DNA of 64,000 nucleotides from the NCBI RefSeq assembly GCF_058153355.1, contig NZ_CM177019.1; one strand, written 5' to 3'. The notes beneath the pieces were generated by a model. It was not told where the DNA came from, made no database searches, and worked only from the letters and a program-made list of their open reading frames with translations. This document shows positions 1 through 62,718 of the stretch, piece by piece. A program made the position numbers and the translations under genes. Within the stretch, counting starts at the first letter, position 1, and every line of letters starts with the position of its first letter.

Positions 1-56
1 TTTCACTGCGAGACAACATTCTTCCGGTCCCTGAGCTGAGGAGAGTTGCAGCAAGA

Positions 57-1196
57 TCATCCTTTTTTCCCTCCACTGTTTTTGAGCGTTAGCACCGGAC
101 GCAGTCGCGCGACAGGAATAATTAACCCAGCCTGCACCAGACATTGCACCACGCTTTCAGCCGATTTATAAGCTTGTGGCGCTTCTTCAAAGATGAGTTG
201 TTTATCGCGACAAATTACCCGGCTGCCAAGTTCAGTACGTGAGAGTTGCGTCGCCGTGTATTTCGCTGCCAGACGCCCTTTACACTCGGTGCGCCCCCAT
301 TTACGCCCTGCCCCATGCGCCAGTGAGTGAAGCGTTTTTTCGTTCGCAACAGGTTTAACCAGCCAGGAGTAATCACCGCGTGAACCGGGAATAATCACCA
401 GACCGTTGTCATCCGGCGTAGCCCCTTTACGGTGTAACCATCCTTGTTGATCGCCGATTCGACATGCGCTAACAAAGTTATGCGCCACATCCAGAACCGA
501 ATTTCCGTTGGCCTTAACTTGTTGCATTATGCGCAAAGCGATCAGCTGGCGATTAATACGCGCAAACGCCAGCGCATCATCATGTTCCGCAATATAACTT
601 AGCGCGTCGTCACTGCCTTCCGGCAAACCATGATGCGAAAACGAGGCAATATGCCGCTGTAAAATAGACTGCCCTAAACCACGCGAGCCGCTATGGACCA
701 GCAGTTGCAGATGCTGCGCATCCAGACCTGACAGTGCAAACAGTTCAGCGTCGATAATTTGATCAACTTGTTGCAGTTCTGCGAAGTGGTTTCCGCCACC
801 GATAGAGCCAAGCGCGCAGCGCCACGGATGCTGTGCAAACGCTGACGGCAGGTTTTCCTCCAGCCAGCTTTCTTCAGCAACGTCATCCAGCACAGATAAT
901 CGCTTTTCAAACTTATCGGCGTTGTATTTACGCGCGAGAATATCTGTTTGCCATAGCGCCATGCCGCAGCCGATATCATTGCCGACCAGTGCCGGGTAAA
1001 AACGGCCTACGGAGAAGAACGCTGCGCCAATCGGATAGCCGCGTCCGGGGTGTAAATCTGGCATCCCTACTACGCGTTGCATGTCGGGTAAATTTGCCGA
1101 GGTGTGTAATTGTTGGATCGCTGAACTCTCGATCCACAGGTCATCAGATGCGATGGTAAATACCGCATCGGATAAGGGACGAATATATTTGCCCAT
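57..1196 (-). CDS. RtcB-family RNA ligase paralog (full-length counterpart of the K-12 ykfJ pseudogene; prfH expected just beyond the window start)
   Basis: 379-aa ORF with RtcB-like sequence; sits downstream of yafP on the same strand, as ykfJ-prfH do in K-12. Confidence 0.75.
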   Translation of the reverse strand: MGKYIRPLSDAVFTIASDDLWIESSAIQQLHTSANLPDMQRVVGMPDLHPGRGYPIGAAFFSVGRFYPALVGNDIGCGMALWQTDILARKYNADKFEKRLSVLDDVAEESWLEENLPSAFAQHPWRCALGSIGGGNHFAELQQVDQIIDAELFALSGLDAQHLQLLVHSGSRGLGQSILQRHIASFSHHGLPEGSDDALSYIAEHDDALAFARINRQLIALRIMQQVKANGNSVLDVAHNFVSACRIGDQQGWLHRKGATPDDNGLVIIPGSRGDYSWLVKPVANEKTLHSLAHGAGRKWGRTECKGRLAAKYTATQLSRTELGSRVICRDKQLIFEEAPQAYKSAESVVQCLVQAGLIIPVARLRPVLTLKNSGGKKG

Positions 1197-1513
1197 GTAT
1201 CATTCCATTTATACTCGTCATACTTCAAGTTGCATGTACTGCGACTGCGTTCGTTCACCCCAGTCACTTACTTTAGTAAGCTCCTGGGGATTCACTCGCT
1301 TGTCGCCTTCCTGCAACTCGAATTATTTAGAGTATATAAATATAAAAATCAGGAAATGGCAGACGAATCCAGGGCAAGAAAAAAAGAATTAATCCTGGAA
1401 AGGTCTGCAAAGAGTCATTGATAAAGGATTTTTCATGATTTACCTCCTTGCAGTTTGTGGAATAAGAAAACGCGCACATATTAGGCGGGCGTTATTTTCA
1501 TTGCAAGCTGGAT

Positions 1514-1966
1514 TTAGTGTTGCGGTTTATATCGCATATGAAAATTAGTAAACCACGCTCCCCGGCATTCAACGCGCTGCTGCTTAACTGTCTGAAAACC
1601 ATAACGTTCAAAAAAGGGTTTTGCGGTTATGCTGGCGTCCACCGTAAGTTCGGATTCAGACTTAATCAAAGGTTTTAACAAAGCGCTGGCAACCCCACGG
1701 CGAGTATATTCAGGGTCAACAAATAACATATCGATATAATGCTCAATGCAGGTAATAAAGCCGACCAGTTGTGTATTAATCACCGCAACCCGCACTTGTG
1801 ATTTCGCGAGTTTCTCTTTCCATCGATGTTCATCAATCTGCGCCCAGGCGGCAATTTGTTGTGGTGAATAATGCTGACTGGCGGTCATCGTAACCGCTCT
1901 AATAAAAATAGCGCATAGTTGCTGAAAATCGCCAGGCTGATAGTTCCTTATTTGTATATTATTCAT
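1514..1966 (-). CDS. yafP: GNAT-family N-acetyltransferase YafP
   Basis: 150-aa ORF, 4-bp overlap with dinB stop; recognised as YafP by sequence and synteny. Confidence 0.85.
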
Positions 1967-3018
1967 AATCCCAGCACCAGTTGTCTTTCCATTTGCGGAT
2001 CCAGCAACGTCACATGCAGCCCCACCAGTCGCACACCGCGCCCGCCACGGCGTTCATCCCAGGTTTTACGCGCAGTGGCGATCAAGTCAGCTTTATTCAG
2101 CCGCGGCCAGACGTGTTCCTGGGTGGTTTGCTGAAAATCGTCGAACTTTAATTTCACCCCCTGGCGGGCAATCAGTAAATCAGGTTTTACCTTTGCCAGA
2201 CGACGCTCCAGTTCAGGGTAAAGCCGCTCGATGATCGCTTCACATTCAGACCAGTGATGAATATCTTCCGCCATGGTGCGTTCTACACCGACGGATTTTC
2301 GCAACCTTTCGCTGTTAACGTCGCGCTCGTCAATGCCCTGACTACGCTCCCATAAAATGCGGCCAAATTTGCCAAAGCGTTTAAGCAGAGTTACCAGATC
2401 ACACTTTTGTACATCGCCGCAGGTCCGCAGCCCCATCGCTTCCAGTTTTGCTGCCGAGACTTTGCCGACGCCGGGAATTTTTGCCAGCGGTAAGGTTTGC
2501 AGAAATGCCGGAACTTCTGCCGGCGTAATCACAAACTGACCGTTGGGTTTATTCATGTCTGAGGCGATTTTGGCGAGAAACTTGACCGGCGCAACGCCCG
2601 CAGACGCCGTCAGTTGCAGCTCGTTGAAGATCGTCTGGCGGATTTCCTGAGCGATAAGGGTCGCAGAGCCGTGGCAATGGACACTATCGGTGACGTCGAG
2701 ATAGGCTTCATCCAGTGACAGCGGCTCAATACGCGATGTGTAGCGAGAGAAGATTTCGCGGATATGATTTGACGCTTCTTTGTAGGCGTCAAAGCGCCCT
2801 GGAAGCAAGGTGAGATGCGGACACAGTTTGAGCGCCATGCCGGTTGGCATTGCGCTACGCACGCCAAATTTACGCGCGGGATAATTGGCGGTGCTGATCA
2901 CCCCCCGGCGTTCGCGGCTGCCGCCAATAGCAATAGGGATATCGCGCAGGGCGGGATTGTCGCGCATCTCCACCGCGGCGAAAAAGCAGTCCATATCCAC
3001 ATGAATGATTTTACGCAT
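1963..3018 (-). CDS. dinB: DNA polymerase IV (Y-family translesion polymerase)
   Basis: 351-aa ORF beginning [17 protein letters not shown], characteristic DinB N-terminus. Confidence 0.95.
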
Positions 3019-3088
3019 TGCTCACCTCTCAACACTGGTAAAGTATACAGTGATTTCAGAGTTTGAGAAATGCGTAAAGATTCAGCAT

Positions 3089-4012
3089 TTAACGCGTTCG
3101 CTGCGAAAGCACCTGCTGCTTATCCAGCTTTTTCACCAGCGGCTGCACCACCTTATCCCCATGCTGACCAAAATATTGATACAACGTATCGGACGCGCTT
3201 TTGGTGAGCACCATAATCTCAATGCGCCGGTTACCCGCGCTTTGCGGATTTTTGGCGTCCAGCAGCATCTGGTCCGCCATCGCGCTTACCTGCATCACTT
3301 TATCTTCCGGCATTCCGGCGTCTTCCAGCACCCGACGGGCCGAGAGCGCGCGATCGCCCGAAAGGTTCCAGTTGTTGTAGATATTGCTTTTATAGGCCAT
3401 CGCATCGGTATGCCCGGTAATAATAATTTTGTTGTCGAGCGAGTCGAACACTGGCGCGAGCTCCACCAGCAGCGTTTTAAAGAACGGCATAATCTTCGCG
3501 CTGCCGCGTTCAAACATATTGCGGTTCTGGTCATCTTTAATCAGCACGCGTAATCCCTGCGGAACAATCTCCATCTCCAGATTGGCTTCCATATGCGCAT
3601 CGCGGGCGATGGTGTTGATACTGGTCGCCAGCTCGCCAAGCTCAGTGGCGGACTTCTTCTTCAGTAGCGCCGTTTTCTCGTTGACGTCGCGCGCTTTTTT
3701 CTCCGTCTCTTCCGGCACCGCCACGGTGGCAGGTTTCGGCGGATGCGTCGGGCTGATTTTATTTAACGGCGATAGCCCGCCGCCATTGAAAATCGACTGC
3801 CCGTGCAGCGCGGCGATAATGCTTTCACGCTCGGATTTACTGACGCTGTTGACAATCCACAGCGTCATAAACAGCGCCATCATTGCCAAAGTAAAGTCGG
3901 CGAACGCCACCTTCCACGCCCCGCCGTGATGCCCGGCATGATTCTTTTTGATCTGCCGCCGGACGATGGTCGTTTTTGCCCCTCGCTCGCGGCGGTTGCC
4001 CGTCTTCCTCAT
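3089..4012 (-). CDS. lafU: Lateral flagellar stator protein, MotB-like (OmpA-type peptidoglycan-binding domain)
   Basis: MotB-like ORF with a TM segment and OmpA-like C-terminus; ATG at 4012 is 1 nt from lafT stop (the track ORF extends to 4045); intact, unlike the K-12 remnant. Confidence 0.8.
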   Translation of the reverse strand: MRKTGNRRERGAKTTIVRRQIKKNHAGHHGGAWKVAFADFTLAMMALFMTLWIVNSVSKSERESIIAALHGQSIFNGGGLSPLNKISPTHPPKPATVAVPEETEKKARDVNEKTALLKKKSATELGELATSINTIARDAHMEANLEMEIVPQGLRVLIKDDQNRNMFERGSAKIMPFFKTLLVELAPVFDSLDNKIIITGHTDAMAYKSNIYNNWNLSGDRALSARRVLEDAGMPEDKVMQVSAMADQMLLDAKNPQSAGNRRIEIMVLTKSASDTLYQYFGQHGDKVVQPLVKKLDKQQVLSQRTR

Positions 4013-4014
4013 GC

Positions 4015-4878
4015 TTATTCTTGCTCCAGCATCGCATTCACCCACGCGTCGAGGTTGGCGAAAGTCGGTTTGGACGCCAGATGCAGCAGCTTACGCCCGG
4101 CATCCACCGCCAGCAGCGTCGGTTTGCCGCCCGCCTGCGCCACCAGCACGGTACGCACGCACTCCAGCAGCGAATGTTCCGCCCGCGCCTGCTGTTCCAT
4201 GGCGTTGGCGAGCGGGTCCATCAGGCAGTAGCAGATAAAGACGCCTAAAAACGTTCCCACCAGCGCCGCCGCCACTTTCAGGCCAATCAGGGCGATAGAG
4301 CCATCAATCGACTGCATGGTGATGATGATGCCCAGCACTGCCGCGCAAATGCCAAACCCCGGCATCGCTTCGGCGGTACGTTGCAACGAGCGCGACGGTG
4401 TTAGCAGCGATTCTTCGGCGGTGTCCAGCTCCTGATCGAGAATGCCTTCCAGTTCATGGGCGTCGATTTTGCCCATCGCCATCAGGCGAAAGTTATCGGC
4501 AATAAAAGTCACCAGCCGCTTCTGGGTTAATATCAGCGGGTATTTCTGGAAAATAGTGCTCTCTTCCGGCTGCTCGATATGCTGATCCAGCATACGCAGG
4601 CCGCCGTTTTGCACCATTTCGAGCAACTCATACAGGCACATTAAAAGCTGACGCTGAAACTCCGGCCCGAGCTGTTTTTTACTGATCACGCCTTTAATTT
4701 GATGGGCAATCTCTTTCAGCACATGTTTTGGGTTACCAATAATCATTGCCCCGAAACCTGCGCCTAAAATAATGATCATTTCCGCCGGTTGCCAGATAGC
4801 GACTAATTGTCCACCCGCTTCAAAATATCCGCCAAATACGCAGCCGAGCACCACCAGTAAACCTAATATTTTTTGCAT
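4015..4878 (-). CDS. lafT: Lateral flagellar stator protein, MotA-like
   Basis: 287-aa multi-TM ORF with MotA/TolQ/ExbB-like sequence, directly upstream of the MotB-like gene. Confidence 0.85.
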   Translation of the reverse strand: MQKILGLLVVLGCVFGGYFEAGGQLVAIWQPAEMIIILGAGFGAMIIGNPKHVLKEIAHQIKGVISKKQLGPEFQRQLLMCLYELLEMVQNGGLRMLDQHIEQPEESTIFQKYPLILTQKRLVTFIADNFRLMAMGKIDAHELEGILDQELDTAEESLLTPSRSLQRTAEAMPGFGICAAVLGIIITMQSIDGSIALIGLKVAAALVGTFLGVFICYCLMDPLANAMEQQARAEHSLLECVRTVLVAQAGGKPTLLAVDAGRKLLHLASKPTFANLDAWVNAMLEQE

Positions 4879-4890
4879 GATTTCTTCACT

Positions 4891-5607
4891 TTAATTCGGA
4901 TAGACAAAATCACGAATTTTCTGCGCGATCTGTTTATTCAGTTGACAAATTCGGGCCTCGGTTAGCCCTAATACCAGCGCAATTTCTTTGAGATTCATCT
5001 CATGTTGGTAATACATGGAGAGGATCAGTTGCTCTTTTTCACTTAATTGTGAAAGCGCCTGTTGCAGCATTTGCTGAGTAATAAACTGATCTTCCAGTTC
5101 CCTGCCAGCAAGCGGAATGCCAGGCCCTTCGCCGTTCAGCAGTTCGTCAAGGCTGGCGAGCGTTTCCGCTCCTTCCAGTTGCTGATATTCGAGATAATCT
5201 TCATGCGAGATCCCTTCCACAGCCAGTTCTGACCACTCCGGTTCGTGCCCCAGTTTCTTACGCGTTTCGCGTATCAGGTCCTTCATCTGATGATATTTCT
5301 GCCGCAGCTGGCGCGGTCGCCAGTCGAGAGCGCGCAGTTCATCCAGGATCGCACCGCGAATACGGTGCACGGCATAGCCCACAAAACCTTCGTCCGGCAG
5401 CCCGTAGCGGCGAATGGCGTTAAGCAGCCCCATTAACGCCGTTTGTTCCATATCCTGACGGTCAATAATACAGTTACATTGCGGGGCAAGTTGCCGCACC
5501 ACTTTACGCACCAATGGTAAATAGGCCTGCAAATAGTGGCTCTCCTGCTGCGCGGTTAATACCGGCGCGGCAGCAAATTCTTCTGACTCGAATACATCCT
5601 GTAGCAT
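4891..5607 (-). CDS. lafS: Sigma-28 (FliA-family) lateral flagellar sigma factor
   Basis: 238-aa ORF with sigma-70-family regions 2-4; position matches fliA in lateral flagellar operons. Confidence 0.85.
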   Translation of the reverse strand: MLQDVFESEEFAAAPVLTAQQESHYLQAYLPLVRKVVRQLAPQCNCIIDRQDMEQTALMGLLNAIRRYGLPDEGFVGYAVHRIRGAILDELRALDWRPRQLRQKYHQMKDLIRETRKKLGHEPEWSELAVEGISHEDYLEYQQLEGAETLASLDELLNGEGPGIPLAGRELEDQFITQQMLQQALSQLSEKEQLILSMYYQHEMNLKEIALVLGLTEARICQLNKQIAQKIRDFVYPN

Positions 5608-15472: not shown

Positions 15473-16849
15473 TTAGCTGCACATTTCCAGCACCGAATCA
15501 AAAATCTCGGCCCCGGCGGAAATGACTTTCAGATTGGCTTCATAAATTTGTTGATAGGTGATCAGGTTCACCGCCTCTTCGTCCATGCTGACGCCGCTGA
15601 CACTGCTCTGCTGGTTTTGCGCCTCAGAATAAACATTGGACGCGGCAGTCACTTCGGTCTGGTTTTGCTGAGTGTAAATGCCGATATTGCTGATGATTGA
15701 CGAGCACGCTTGCCCGACCGTCACGCTGCCGAGGTTGGCTATCTCCAGCGGCTCAGTGGAGATGTTGATCAGCGCCTGCAGGTTGTCACTGTTGCCGCTT
15801 TCGTCCGGCGAACTGGAGAACGCCAGTTCATCAGCGGTGATATCCGGGTTAACGGTCAGCGGGCCATCGGCATTACTGGCATCGTAAATAAACAGCGGCT
15901 CGCCGGGGTTACCGTTGAGATCGTAGCCCTGCGCCAGCTGGTTGTTGACCGCATCGGCAAACTGCGACGCCATGCTGTTGATGGTGTCGGTCAGCGGCGT
16001 CAGGACGTCGTTTTGATAATCAAAAAGTGCGCCTAATGAACCGCCGGTGTCGGTGGTCATCGTCGAGGTGGTTCCGGCGAAGGTCAGCGACATGGTCGGC
16101 GTGCCATCGGCGTTGGTTTCCAGCGCGATGGTCGAGCTTTGCTGCCCGCTCACCAGCGGCTGACCGTTTTGCAGGGTAACGTTGTAGTTGCCCTGGTCGT
16201 CGATATTGACCTGCACATCCATCATTCCGCTGAGTTCTTCCACCATCTGGTCACGGGCGTCGTACAGCGCGGAGGCGTTATCCCCGTTGGCTTCGGCCTG
16301 GGCGATTTGCTGGTTATAGCTGGCGATGCCGCTGGTGAGGGTGTTAATTTGCGACACCATCGCCTGCTGCTGGCTGATGATTTCCGTGCTTTGCGAGTCG
16401 ATGTAATCCAGCGTGTTATCGATACGCAACGACAGCGCCCCGGCTTCGCTGATCACCTGCTCGCGCAGGGCAGAATCATCGGGGCTGGTGGTCGCTTCGT
16501 TGAGGGCCGCGAAAAAGTTATCGAACCCGCCGCTCAGGCTGCTGTTATCGTCGCTCAATACCGCTTCCAGTTGCGTGAGATACCCTTGCTGGGTGTTGTA
16601 ATAGCCGTAATCGCTGGCGGCATACCACACCTGATTCACCTGATACTGGTTGGAGACGCGACGAATGCTGTCGACCTGCACACCGTTTCCGGCGCTGTTC
16701 GGCGACCCGCCGCTGGCACCGATAGTGCTGATCTCCGCCACCTGGCGGGTGTAGCCCGTGGTCATGGCGTTAGCGGTGTTTTGCGCCGTGACGTTCAGCT
16801 CCACCTGCGCGGTTGATGCGCCGCTGTAGCCGATGTTAATCATGTCCAT
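15473..16849 (-). CDS. lfgK: FlgK-like hook-associated protein 1
   Basis: 458-aa ORF with FlgK-like N-terminus (NTANAMTTGYTRQ) and C-terminus. Confidence 0.8.
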   Translation of the reverse strand: MDMINIGYSGASTAQVELNVTAQNTANAMTTGYTRQVAEISTIGASGGSPNSAGNGVQVDSIRRVSNQYQVNQVWYAASDYGYYNTQQGYLTQLEAVLSDDNSSLSGGFDNFFAALNEATTSPDDSALREQVISEAGALSLRIDNTLDYIDSQSTEIISQQQAMVSQINTLTSGIASYNQQIAQAEANGDNASALYDARDQMVEELSGMMDVQVNIDDQGNYNVTLQNGQPLVSGQQSSTIALETNADGTPTMSLTFAGTTSTMTTDTGGSLGALFDYQNDVLTPLTDTINSMASQFADAVNNQLAQGYDLNGNPGEPLFIYDASNADGPLTVNPDITADELAFSSSPDESGNSDNLQALINISTEPLEIANLGSVTVGQACSSIISNIGIYTQQNQTEVTAASNVYSEAQNQQSSVSGVSMDEEAVNLITYQQIYEANLKVISAGAEIFDSVLEMCS

Positions 16850-17042
16850 GTTGGATCCTTACCGGTAAATCGTGCCGGTTAAAAGCGGCGTGAAGTTGGA
16901 GATTCTTAAGTTCCGTAAACCGGGCGCCAGACACCGGATGCAGCCTGCATACGGGCACAAACATAAAAATATGTGCGAACTCGTAGATACTGTTATGGCC
17001 TGCAAGTTTTTTTCTACCCCGGTTTCCCAGATTGCAGGCATG

Positions 17043-18269
<1,227 letters not shown>

Positions 18270-18307
18270 TGATAAGCGTAGCGCATCAGGCAATCTGGCA
18301 CCAGACA

Positions 18308-19021
18308 TCACGCCGCATCACTGTCGGCATCGGGTACGCCAAACTGGCTAATCATGGTGAACGGCACTTCGCCTACACCGGCAACGTTAAGCACCGGAGA
18401 GCTGCCGTCGAGCGGGATGCGCACATCTTCCACTTCGCCGGAGACTTCAATCGGTACTTCTTCTTCCCCGGTATTGGTCACCACCGAGACGTCGTAATCG
18501 CCCGGCGGGATGCCGTAATCCGCCGGGTTAATCGAGAAATCCACTTGGCCTGGCCCAACCGACGAACTCCCTTCCGGGATCAGCGAGACGGTGTAGTCAT
18601 CGCCCGCAGCATCGGTAAAGTGGAGATCGGCGGTGGTACAGGCGTCGTCCAGCGTGGCGCGACCGTTAATGGTCTGGTCACTCACCTGCAAGGCGGTGGT
18701 CTGCACCATAATGTCGTCGCCCACCAGGTTGCCGAGCGCCATCACCTGAATGTTGCTCATCAGCACCGCGTTGGTATTGGCCTGCACGCTCATCTCTTCC
18801 ATCATCGCCACCTGCGCCATCGACGAAAGCTGGTCGATATATTCGGTGGCATCGGTCGGGTCGGTCGGGTCCTGGTTTTGGATCTCAGCGACAAACAGCG
18901 TCAGGAAAGTATCGACGGGCGAGCTATCGCTGCTGCTTGTCGTGTCGCTGGCTGCCACATTATTGCTTTCCGCCGTGGCGGTCGGTTGCGGCGATTGCGC
19001 ATTCAGCGCCAGGGTATTCAT
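18308..19021 (-). CDS. lfgD: FlgD-like hook capping/scaffold protein
   Basis: 237-aa ORF with FlgD N-terminal motif (FLTLFVAEIQNQDPTDP) and C-terminal beta domain. Confidence 0.75.
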   Translation of the reverse strand: MNTLALNAQSPQPTATAESNNVAASDTTSSSDSSPVDTFLTLFVAEIQNQDPTDPTDATEYIDQLSSMAQVAMMEEMSVQANTNAVLMSNIQVMALGNLVGDDIMVQTTALQVSDQTINGRATLDDACTTADLHFTDAAGDDYTVSLIPEGSSSVGPGQVDFSINPADYGIPPGDYDVSVVTNTGEEEVPIEVSGEVEDVRIPLDGSSPVLNVAGVGEVPFTMISQFGVPDADSDAA

Positions 19022-20609: not shown

Positions 20610-20687
20610 TTTACGCAGGCGATTAAAGTTTTGCCGCCTGTTAACCGCTTTACCGGAGTAACCCCCAAATACCAAGACGAGGTTGCG

Positions 20688-53153: not shown

Positions 53154-55123
<1,970 letters not shown>

Positions 55124-60681: not shown

Positions 60682-62718
60682 TTACGAAAATATGAAGTTC
60701 GCAGTCGTATCGTCATCAGCCTCTGGCACTTTCAGCGCCGCCGGTTGCAGCGTCGGCACGGGTGTCCCCGGACTTCCCCCACCGTTCAGGTTTATCTTCG
60801 GCCCCACGATATCCACGCCACCAGAATGAACGACAACGAACGAGCCGCCCACCTTCAGGGTGATTTTACCGCCGCTCTCCAGTACGATTTCATCCCGGAC
60901 CTTCATTCCCAGCGCGCCGGTAATTTTCCTCGCCAGGTCGCCTTTCACCTCCAGACTGTGTTTCCCCTCCACGAGGCTAATGTGGTTTCCTGTCGTCTTG
61001 TGCTCCTGCTTCCCTTCCACCGTCACCTTTCGGTCATTTTTTACATACAGACCGTCATCGTGGCTGACGTTCACCCGCCGGTCGTTCGTCACCTTCAGCG
61101 TCTGGTCATTGCGCACCGTGATGCTCCGGTTGTGGGCCACCGTGATGGTCTGGTCGTGCCCCCCGGCATTCTCTTTCCCCACCGTCACCGTCTGGCCCAG
61201 CCCCACGGTGATTTTCTGGTTGTTCCCGATGGTCTCCGTGTGGTCATGCTTCACGTCCGTTGTCCGGTCGTTGAGCACCTCCGTGTCCATGTTCTTCTGC
61301 GCGTGGATATAGACCTGCTCATTACTGGTGGCGTCCTCGAACCGCAATTCGTTAAAGCCGCTTCCTTTATAGGTCTTCGACCGTATCGTCATCTGCGTCT
61401 TCGTGCCCGGTAAATCCCCCGGTGAACGGTTGTCCTCATGGTAGGTGCGTCCCGTGACGATGGGCTGGTCCGGGTCCCCGTTCAGAAAGTCCACTATCAC
61501 TTCCTGACCCACACGCGGTATCGCCAGATTACCGAACCCCGCTCCCGCCCACGCCTGCGACACCCGTATCCAGCATGAACTCTCCTCCGTCATCCCGTGA
61601 TAACGGTCCCAGTGAAACTTCACCCGCACCCGTCCATGTTCGTCGCAGAATATCTCCTCGCCCTTCGGCCCGGTCACGATGGCACTCTGCGGGCCGTCCA
61701 CCTTCGGCTTCGGTAGCGGCGCGTGACGCCACGTCCTGTCCGCCGGTATCACCTCAAACTGGTTACTCAGCGTCGTTCCTTCACCGTGACTGCCGTGCAG
61801 CGCCTGCGGCTGTTCCCCCAGCAGCGTGCTTCCCACAACCTGCCATTCACGGTTCAGCGTCTCCGCACCACTCCGCCAGCCTTCCGTCTGGTAACGCGCA
61901 AAGTCCTGCCCGTGCTGCTCATCCTTGAAACGCCCCGGATAATCAAATATCTCGTACTGCGTTCCCTGTCCGTTCAGGCTCTCCCCGTCATGGCTGTAGT
62001 ACCCCGGCCACCCCGGCACTTTAAACGTATAATCCTGCGTCTCCACCGACGCCACGCTTATCTGCGCACGGTAACGAAACTCGCTGATGTACTCCGTCTT
62101 TCCCCCGGTCGTCGTGTTCGGGTTAAACGCCAGCGTTCCCATTCCCGTCAGCCCCGCCACGTCATCACACACCGCCAGCTTCTGCTCCGGCCCTTCCTGA
62201 CCGCAGCGCTCATAAAAGAAGATACCTTCCTCCGCCCACAGCCGGGTCAGGAATGCCAGGTCGCTCTCCCCGTACTGCACGCAGAACTCCCGCGCCGGGT
62301 GCGCCTCATAGAACAGCGGCATCCACGCCGTCACCCCGTTCTCTCTCAGAAGCTGTGCTGATATCGTCTGAATGTCCTGCTGCTGGAAGATACGGAAGTT
62401 CTGCCGTAACCCTGCCCGCCACAGCGGCGGGCTGATGCTCAGGGAATAACGCATCTGCCAGTCGTTGTTCTCACCGAGCTGCACCTCCGTCACGATACCG
62501 CTGACGTAACGCTGCGGGATATCACCCTGCCAGACCGTCAGCACCGCGCTCTTCTCCAGAAAATCTTCTGCCGTCAGGTCAGACAGTCCGCTGGCGATAT
62601 CCACATCCAGGATGAACGGTGTGCAGTGGTGCTGGTACAGACGGAAGCTCACCACCGCCGTCGCCATCTCCACAATACCGTCCACCGACAGCGTGAAACG
62701 TAATCCTTCTGAGGACAT
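60682..62718 (-). CDS. vgrG: Type VI secretion spike protein VgrG
   Basis: 678-aa ORF with gp27/gp5-like VgrG sequence and C-terminal beta-helix repeats. Confidence 0.9.
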   Translation of the reverse strand: MSSEGLRFTLSVDGIVEMATAVVSFRLYQHHCTPFILDVDIASGLSDLTAEDFLEKSAVLTVWQGDIPQRYVSGIVTEVQLGENNDWQMRYSLSISPPLWRAGLRQNFRIFQQQDIQTISAQLLRENGVTAWMPLFYEAHPAREFCVQYGESDLAFLTRLWAEEGIFFYERCGQEGPEQKLAVCDDVAGLTGMGTLAFNPNTTTGGKTEYISEFRYRAQISVASVETQDYTFKVPGWPGYYSHDGESLNGQGTQYEIFDYPGRFKDEQHGQDFARYQTEGWRSGAETLNREWQVVGSTLLGEQPQALHGSHGEGTTLSNQFEVIPADRTWRHAPLPKPKVDGPQSAIVTGPKGEEIFCDEHGRVRVKFHWDRYHGMTEESSCWIRVSQAWAGAGFGNLAIPRVGQEVIVDFLNGDPDQPIVTGRTYHEDNRSPGDLPGTKTQMTIRSKTYKGSGFNELRFEDATSNEQVYIHAQKNMDTEVLNDRTTDVKHDHTETIGNNQKITVGLGQTVTVGKENAGGHDQTITVAHNRSITVRNDQTLKVTNDRRVNVSHDDGLYVKNDRKVTVEGKQEHKTTGNHISLVEGKHSLEVKGDLARKITGALGMKVRDEIVLESGGKITLKVGGSFVVVHSGGVDIVGPKINLNGGGSPGTPVPTLQPAALKVPEADDDTTANFIFS

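Follow-up and report, generated by a model that had tools for sequence, protein, structure and literature searches.

The rtcB2-prfH locus at the left end of the window

The stretch of DNA analysed here, called the window, comprises 64,000 nucleotides (nt) of contig NZ_CM177019.1 (RefSeq assembly GCF_058153355.1), and its left end carries rtcB2, a gene for an RNA ligase of the RtcB family, together with the first codons of prfH and a conserved leader (Table 1). An original prediction, made from the letters alone, had placed a full-length RtcB-like ligase at positions 57-1196 and had named prfH as its probable partner, and both points hold. With a probability of roughly 90%, the gene encodes RtcB2 of an rtcB2-prfH ribosome repair operon, in which prfH is coupled through an ATGA overlap, a promoter belongs to the operon itself, and a leader open reading frame (ORF) homologous to PA5471.1 of Pseudomonas aeruginosa lies within mutually exclusive hairpins.

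The rtcB2 ORF runs uninterrupted from ATG to TGA and fills these coordinates exactly. Its 379-residue product is a member of the Pfam RtcB family PF01139 (E = 6.2e-73; 246.9 bits against a cut-off of 27). Two NCBIfam models with curated equivalog cut-offs define the RtcB subfamily coupled to release factor H, and both match: NF007153/PRK09588 with 639.1 bits (cut-off 407) over residues 1-378 of the 379, and TIGR03073 'release_rtcB' with 619.9 bits (cut-off 271.8). By these profile scores the protein belongs, far beyond chance, to the PrfH-coupled RtcB2 subfamily. Solved RtcB structures match it at E values of 1e-30 to 1e-21; the structure search with RtcB2 returned distant RtcB proteins only (E about 1e-30), with no RtcB2 structure among the solved structures.

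Comparison with characterised RtcB proteins, a check proposed with the original prediction for the metal-binding His and Cys residues, finds all metal ligands and the GMP-accepting His in place. Residue mapping by alignment assigns D74, C77, and H137 to metal site M2 and C77, H168, and H239 to M1, and the nucleophile that accepts GMP is H294, located within SLAHGAGRK. In the alignment to K-12 RtcB1, D74, C77, H137, H168, H239, and H294 correspond to D75, C78, H168, H185, H281, and H337 of the Escherichia coli enzyme. N136, R172, R298 (R341 in E. coli RtcB1), and E140 are conserved as well. In Pyrococcus horikoshii RtcB, M1 is formed by His234, His329, and Cys98, M2 by Asp95, Cys98, and His203, and the nucleophile is His404 (PMC9745838); these metal and nucleophile motifs are recovered also in the HMMER alignment of the window protein to 4DWR. 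Judged by orthology, the RtcB2 encoded here is probably a 3′-phosphate/5′-OH RNA ligase that depends on GTP and Mn2+.

The PF01139 fold, the Asp/Cys/three-His ligand set, and the His-GMP nucleophile are thus common to the window protein, E. coli RtcB1 (rtcBA), and P. horikoshii RtcB (PDB 4DWQ and others). In contrast, RtcB1 is only 32% identical and is longer (408 versus 379 residues), with two insertions that the window RtcB2 lacks. RtcB1 is also paired with rtcA and RtcR rather than with prfH, and the substrate of the RtcB2 orthologue is the cleaved 30S subunit, not tRNA.

Coupling of prfH to rtcB2

PrfH (release factor H) is a class I release-factor homologue that lacks domain 1. Because rtcB2 reads from right to left, prfH lies downstream of it, toward the left window edge. 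It had been expected just left of position 1; the gene in fact starts inside the window at position 60, and its remainder does lie beyond the edge. The prfH ATG (60-58) overlaps the rtcB2 TGA (59-57) as a 4-nt ATGA, with a GGAGG 11 nt upstream of the ATG. This overlap at 57-60 marks prfH, as read from the sequence, as translationally coupled to rtcB2. The same ATGA recurs in Escherichia, Klebsiella, Citrobacter, and an Enterobacteriaceae metagenome-assembled genome (MAG), and in more genera by called gene coordinates. Together with the subfamily scores above, it supports prfH as the partner of this ligase.

The 20 PrfH residues within the window are identical to the PrfH N-terminus of NZ_CP169399.1, and 19 of the 20 match PrfH of ATCC 25922, the protein of the PrfH-ribosome structure PDB 7SA4. 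NZ_CP169399.1 is the closest complete genome, with 99.0% nucleotide identity over window positions 1-1520 (15 mismatches). Its prfH is intact, with 204 codons and the GGQ motif (SSGPGGQHVNKT), and the product matches the PDB 7SA4 PrfH chain at E = 8e-133. Intact 204-residue prfH genes with GGQ are found also in ATCC 25922 and in six further genera. Since only 20 codons are visible, intactness cannot be proved from the window; by analogy with this 99.0%-identical genome, and not by reading it from the window, prfH of the window strain is probably intact. Among the genomes examined, rtcB2-prfH sits between dinB/yafP and pepD in Enterobacteriaceae. NZ_CP169399.1 carries a 'metal-dependent hydrolase' gene and a small hypothetical gene between prfH and pepD (L001, 4569-5383), neither of which occurs in K-12 or ATCC 25922.

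Table 1 Features of the rtcB2-prfH locus, in window coordinates.
Feature	Position	Strand	Details
prfH, 5′ end	1-60	minus	First 20 codons, MILLQLSSAQGPEECCLAVK; ATG at 60-58; gene runs off the left window edge
rtcB2 coding sequence	57-1196	minus	379 codons plus TGA; evidence: ORF, Pfam and NCBIfam matches, identity to ATCC 25922 RtcB2
Hairpin C	1201-1358	minus	CAUUUCC (1358-1352) with GGAAUG (1206-1201), directly 5′ of the rtcB2 AUG
ERIC element	1213-1341		About 127-129 bp; contains ERIC core GTGAATCCCCAGGAGCTTAC; in the loop of hairpin C
Hairpin B	1359-1408	minus	Outer stem GCAGAC (1408-1403)/GUCUGC (1364-1359); inner stem CCAGG (1398-1394)/CCUGG (1373-1369)
Leader ORF, PA5471.1 homologue	1389-1436	minus	15 codons plus TAA, MKNPLSMTLCRPFQD; strong Shine-Dalgarno sequence AAGGAGGT within 1443-1453
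Hairpin A	1405-1453	minus	Shine-Dalgarno region CUGCAAGGAG (1453-1444) with CUCUUUGCAG (1414-1405, leader codons 8-11)
Putative sigma-70 promoter	1478-1506	minus	-35 TTGCAA (1506-1501), 17-nt spacer, -10 TAATAT (1483-1478)

Relation to the published operon and to K-12

The intact operon, its coupling, the deletion in K-12, and the role against colicin E3 are already published. Baranov et al. 2006 (PMC1586002) reported the conservation of the gene pair, its overlapping stop and start codons, and a K-12 deletion of ~1,000 nt, and noted that E. coli 042, a carrier of the Flag-2 cluster, has uninterrupted genes of the pair. Ribotoxins such as colicin E3 and CdiA-CT(ECL) cleave 16S rRNA between A1493 and G1494, and PrfH frees the peptide solely from 70S ribosomes cut at this site (Tian et al. 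2022, PMC9304027). In vitro, RtcB2 religates damaged 30S subunits and not cleaved tRNAs, RtcB1 does the reverse, and in vivo RtcB2 and PrfH together undo the damage done by ribotoxins (PMC9304027). The intact ATCC 25922 operon gives protection from colicin E3 (Maviza et al. 2022, PMC9223846). A 2026 paper adds that PrfH speeds repair and that colicin-E3-cleaved ribosomes pile up at start codons, and RtcB1 gives no relief to ribosomes stalled by the colicin E3 rRNase (PMC13166195). The statement in the original prediction that RtcB-PrfH pairs are implicated in the repair of damaged ribosomes is thus borne out by experiments (PMC9304027, PMC9223846) on an RtcB2 that is 96.0% identical to the one encoded here (364 of 379 residues, same length). 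Between the two rtcB2 genes, codon differences are synonymous in 40 cases and non-synonymous in 15, which indicates purifying selection, and the catalytic residues are untouched by the 15 substitutions. ATCC 25922 shares the locus order dinB-yafP-rtcB2-prfH-pepD, the ATGA overlap, the leader promoter, the leader ORF, and the hairpins; its assembly is inverted relative to K-12. PADLOC defence-system models gave zero matches, and no PADLOC model covers rtcB2-prfH.

K-12 retains just the fragment ykfJ, as had been noted in the original prediction: ykfJ and prfH (b0235, b0236) are annotated there as pseudogenes, and alignment defines a deletion of about 1,020 bp whose ends map to about -30 and 989 in window coordinates and whose junction shows a 7-nt overlap. 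Gone with it are about the first 30 PrfH codons and RtcB2 from residue ~70 to 379, and rtcB2 codon ~70 is fused to prfH codon ~30. The locus is otherwise the same. K-12 keeps the promoter, the leader, the enterobacterial repetitive intergenic consensus (ERIC) element, and rtcB2 up to codon ~70, and the conserved upstream block is 96.4% identical at the nucleotide level. A further difference is that K-12 has the toxin-antitoxin pair yafN-yafO between dinB and yafP, which the window lacks; yafN-yafO is likewise missing from ATCC 25922 and from the closest genome, and in the window dinB (1963-3018) and yafP (1514-1966) overlap by 4 nt. The segment deleted from K-12 (window 61-985) is found in 2,714 of 5,426 complete E. 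coli genomes, with at least 80% coverage in 2,674, and the intact rtcB2-prfH form is therefore an ordinary one, occurring in about one of every two complete E. coli genomes.

A conserved leader upstream of rtcB2

The spacer between yafP and rtcB2 is 317 nt long (1197-1513) and contains conserved blocks found in Escherichia species, Klebsiella, Citrobacter, and the Enterobacteriaceae MAG. Leader loci from nine more genera were collected through protein homologues (Salmonella, Intestinirhabdus, Kosakonia, Cronobacter, Entomohabitans, Limnobaculum, Proteus, Providencia, and Pseudomonas). In addition, metagenomes were scanned with the pattern TTTGCRG-N60-90-GGATTGGTATATG, which gave 80 loci; the 14 that begin an RtcB2 ORF were kept, and the remaining matches, lacking such a start, were discarded as chance.

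A putative sigma-70 promoter begins 8 nt past the yafP stop codon, and its position and spacing are kept from Escherichia to Proteus, Limnobaculum, and Pseudomonas. A simple consensus scan missed it because only 8 of 12 positions match. The sequence right after yafP had also been considered as a terminator, a reading that was dropped given the conservation of the -35 element, 17-nt spacer, and -10 element across genera.

In every locus examined, a short ORF of 13-15 codons lies upstream of rtcB2 and follows a strong Shine-Dalgarno (SD) sequence (GCAAAGGAGG). The motif CUUUGC(A/G)G is invariant inside this ORF. One metagenomic lineage reads the conserved CUUUGCAG motif in another frame (...TPFAGPxS*), and the constraint therefore acts on the RNA and on the presence of a translated ORF rather than on the peptide. 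An Rfam scan of window positions 1-3200 (E <= 1) placed no family over the leader, where no gene is annotated either; it returned a sub-threshold, ERIC-like V_AS5 match (1214-1337) and one chance snoRNA match. The window leader differs from that of ATCC 25922 in residue 2 of the peptide (K2 for T2), in the last hairpin arm (GGAAUGA for GGAAUGG), and in an inserted ERIC element, which ATCC 25922 lacks. The element is present in K-12, absent in Escherichia whittamii as well, and partly deleted in Escherichia sp. E1V33. Per E. coli genome, the median number of matching places is 6 for a query of window positions 1-1520 and 1 for the ERIC-free query 61-985, a difference that the ERIC element likely explains. 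Klebsiella spallanzanii carries a different ERIC-like insertion at the same point of the leader, and in Intestinirhabdus alba about 200 nt have been inserted into the hairpin-B loop of the leader.

Mutually exclusive hairpins in the leader

The hairpins were evaluated in an alignment of 25 distinct leaders, from which three large insertions had been excised by hand beforehand. The metagenomic leaders in this set had been chosen by two of the motifs and not by the 3′ arm of stem B. Hairpin A, which pairs the SD region of the leader ORF with CUUUGCAG, has 97% of its cells paired and appears in the minimum-free-energy fold of almost every species. The final codons of the leader ORF, stop codon included, lie inside hairpin B. 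In its outer stem all 150 cells (100%) are paired, and three of the six pairs show compensatory changes (AU 15, GC 7, GU 3; CG 19, UA 4, UG 2; AU 23, GC 1, GU 1). The covariation score of hairpin B was reached in 0 of 500 shuffles, a control that leaves in the relatedness among the leader sequences. Hairpins A and B share nucleotides and therefore cannot coexist. Hairpin C covers the presumed rtcB2 ribosome-binding site, with 84% of cells paired and a U-A to A-U swap between Escherichia and Klebsiella, and in the predicted fold of the window sequence it stays closed around the ERIC hairpin.

Minimum-free-energy folds contain hairpins A and C in nearly every species. When the leader SD and AUG are blocked in constraint folding, as a mimic of a parked ribosome, the fold switches to hairpin B. 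In the folding model, opening of the rtcB2 initiation region (-15 to +13) takes 9-17 kcal/mol. With a ribosome placed on the leader AUG, this requirement falls by an average of 1.9 kcal/mol in 15 of 16 species, and with one at the stop codon or at leader codon 10 it rises. The leader was also considered as a mimic of 16S rRNA h44 or of the 16S rRNA 3′ end and set aside, the resemblances being short and found by eye only.

The leader as a homologue of PA5471.1

In P. aeruginosa, PA5471 (armZ) is RtcB-like and falls in the same PRK09588 cluster, and PA5470 is prfH (PMC3516279). Three papers (PMC3516279, PMC12057347, PMC13041342; original work by Morita et al. 2009) describe PA5471.1 as a 13-residue leader peptide that controls the armZ operon through ribosome stalling, by which the mRNA is remodelled and attenuation is relieved. 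Stalling-dependent induction via PA5471.1 has been shown in P. aeruginosa (PMC12057347, PMC13041342). ArmZ binds the repressor MexZ and thereby induces an efflux pump; this activity, located in the C-terminal helix of ArmZ, is characterised as MexZ-specific, and a 2025 review terms the leader mechanism apparently unique to MexXY (both PMC12057347). K-12 ykfJ is cited, in PMC3516279, as inducible by 4-azaleucine.

The P. aeruginosa RtcB-family protein that we take as ArmZ is 60% identical to the window protein. Its leader, MIQFSTLCRLRLA, lies 254 nt upstream of armZ and has the Q3 and F4 of the 2026 paper (PMC13041342). The two loci share the SD sequence GCAAAGGAGG, the CUUUGCAG(G/A)C motif encoding Leu-Cys-Arg (seen as CUUUGCAGGC), the stem-B partner G(G)UCUGCC (GGUCUGCC), and AUGGAUUGG right before the main AUG, and armZ likewise overlaps its prfH by 4 nt. 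Sharing of the SD, the motif, the stem-B partner, and the pre-AUG motif therefore identifies the window leader, by sequence comparison, as the E. coli homologue of PA5471.1. The leader motifs and stems A, B, and C are common to the window, the P. aeruginosa locus, and at least 13 genera. The loci differ in that the P. aeruginosa leader stands some 250 nt ahead of armZ and is accompanied by additional GC-rich hairpins, which are proposed terminators, whereas the distance from leader AUG to rtcB2 AUG in the window is about 113 nt without and 240 nt with the ERIC element, with no detectable terminator between. ArmZ also differs as a MexZ anti-repressor, for which no such partner is known in E. 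coli.

In the passages of the experimental RtcB2/PrfH literature retrieved by term searches, the promoter, the leader, or regulation of the operon is not discussed; full-text searches pairing prfH with leader terms returned nothing, and the leader was not found discussed for E. coli. Baranov et al. 2006 (PMC1586002) use 'upstream' solely for the rtcB-like gene. The leader, so far studied only in Pseudomonas, is a modest addition to the published operon.

Proposed control of the operon

A PA5471.1-type leader may switch on enterobacterial rtcB2-prfH, this copy included, through a translational or Rho-dependent output; folding models and conservation suggest as much, and we give the proposal about an even chance. 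In such a switch, a ribosome stalled early on the leader would hold hairpin A open and favour hairpin B, and formation of B would loosen the structure that buries the rtcB2 start, raising rtcB2-prfH expression when translation is impaired. The candidate trigger is the ribosome cleaved by colicin E3, which stalls at start codons and would be expected to initiate on the leader and then fail to elongate. After a ribotoxin has cut 16S rRNA between A1493 and G1494, RtcB2 would, by orthology, reseal the 2',3'-cyclic-phosphate/5'-OH break in the 30S subunit with Mn2+ and GTP through a His294-GMP intermediate. In the absence of a detectable terminator, output in enterobacteria may be translational or Rho-dependent, and not the terminator read-through proposed in Pseudomonas. 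The ERIC element in the loop of the last hairpin could modify the switch in the window strain.

Several observations weigh against the assignment or against parts of it. A consensus scan found no intrinsic terminator on the minus strand at 1197-1513, and no U-tract directly follows the hairpins, whereas the Pseudomonas model invokes transcription termination. In hairpin A, changes are one-sided (wobble) only, with no double compensation. A further helix, D (UUGCCC with GGGCAA at rtcB2 codons 2-3), is weak and tentative, with 75% pairing and an apparent compensation that depends on the alignment. Relatedness among the leaders also bears on the covariation controls, as said above. The modelled effect on rtcB2 initiation is modest, with 9-16 kcal/mol of structure left, and in this lineage the ERIC insertion and the G-to-A change from GGAAUGG to GGAAUGA may alter regulation. 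As for the proteins, one of the 15 substitutions relative to ATCC 25922 RtcB2 (A139 in place of V) adjoins the metal ligand H137, and with 20 prfH codons in the window an inactivating change further downstream is possible in the window strain.

Alternative readings of the locus

It is improbable that rtcB2 has, as in K-12, lost its function or is on the way to losing it, and is intact only by chance next to a prfH broken outside the window. Such a reading can draw on the half of complete E. coli genomes that are without the segment deleted in K-12 and on Intestinirhabdus alba, where two short called genes of 144 and 61 residues occupy the prfH position (L018, 3137-3812) in what looks like decay of the module; the operon is thus dispensable and often lost, and prfH past codon 20 does lie outside the window. 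Against decay stand the full-length ORF with every catalytic residue kept, the purifying selection indicated by 40 synonymous versus 15 non-synonymous codons, the intact prfH start, SD, and ATGA coupling in the window, and the intact prfH of the 99.0%-identical genome.

That the protein, like RtcB1, repairs RNA or tRNA in general and is not specific to ribosomes is very improbable, although the two enzymes belong to one fold family and have identical catalytic constellations. The window protein matches the PrfH-coupled subfamily models and not generic RtcB, its identity to K-12 RtcB1 is low, and the RtcB1 insertions are missing. Moreover, the substrates of the orthologous RtcB2 (damaged 30S) and of RtcB1 (cleaved tRNA) are mutually exclusive in vitro (PMC9304027), and the failure of RtcB1 to relieve colicin-E3-stalled ribosomes (PMC13166195) argues in the same direction. 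Least probable of all is a main role in regulation like that of ArmZ through MexZ binding, with RNA ligation secondary. Membership of ArmZ in the PRK09588 cluster (PMC3516279), the 60% identity of the P. aeruginosa protein taken as ArmZ, the same prfH partner, and the homologous leader all speak for it; yet the locus has no linked mexZ-mexXY counterpart within the window, the anti-repressor activity of ArmZ belongs to a MexZ-specific C-terminal helix (PMC12057347), and the E. coli orthologue protects from colicin E3 in a ligase-dependent manner (PMC9304027, PMC9223846).

Neighbouring features of the window

Beyond dinB, a Flag-2 (lateral flagella) cluster occupies window positions ~3089-41000, beginning with lafU/motA/fliA-like genes at 3089-5607 toward flhA; of this cluster K-12 retains the lafU and lfhA pseudogenes alone. 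Between flgK (15473-16849) and flgD (18308-19021), the window carries an IS110-family transposase ORF (17092-18072, within 16911-18310) where the closest genome has about 5.2 kb of genes (rod-binding protein, flgI, flgH, flgG, flgF, and flgE), and the Flag-2 cluster of the window strain therefore looks inactivated by a deletion associated with the insertion sequence. The closest genome in turn has a 3-kb insertion between flgA and flgM that encodes a DNA cytosine methyltransferase and a type II restriction endonuclease (L147, 15185-18190) and is not present in the window (~20612-20620). Further to the right lie an IS21-like istA candidate with rve and Mu-transposase domains (53951-55123), adjoined by an ORF in the istB position (53154-53954), and, near the right window end, a VgrG-type type VI secretion spike protein (60682-62718).

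Implications

The window strain is predicted to have some tolerance to ribotoxins that act on the decoding centre. Conservation and covariation of the leader from Pseudomonas to Escherichia suggest that a sensor of ribosome stalling controls the repair operon. If this is true, the repair genes would be made exactly when ribosomes are damaged, and the literatures on Pseudomonas ArmZ/MexXY and on RtcB2-PrfH ribosome repair would be joined.

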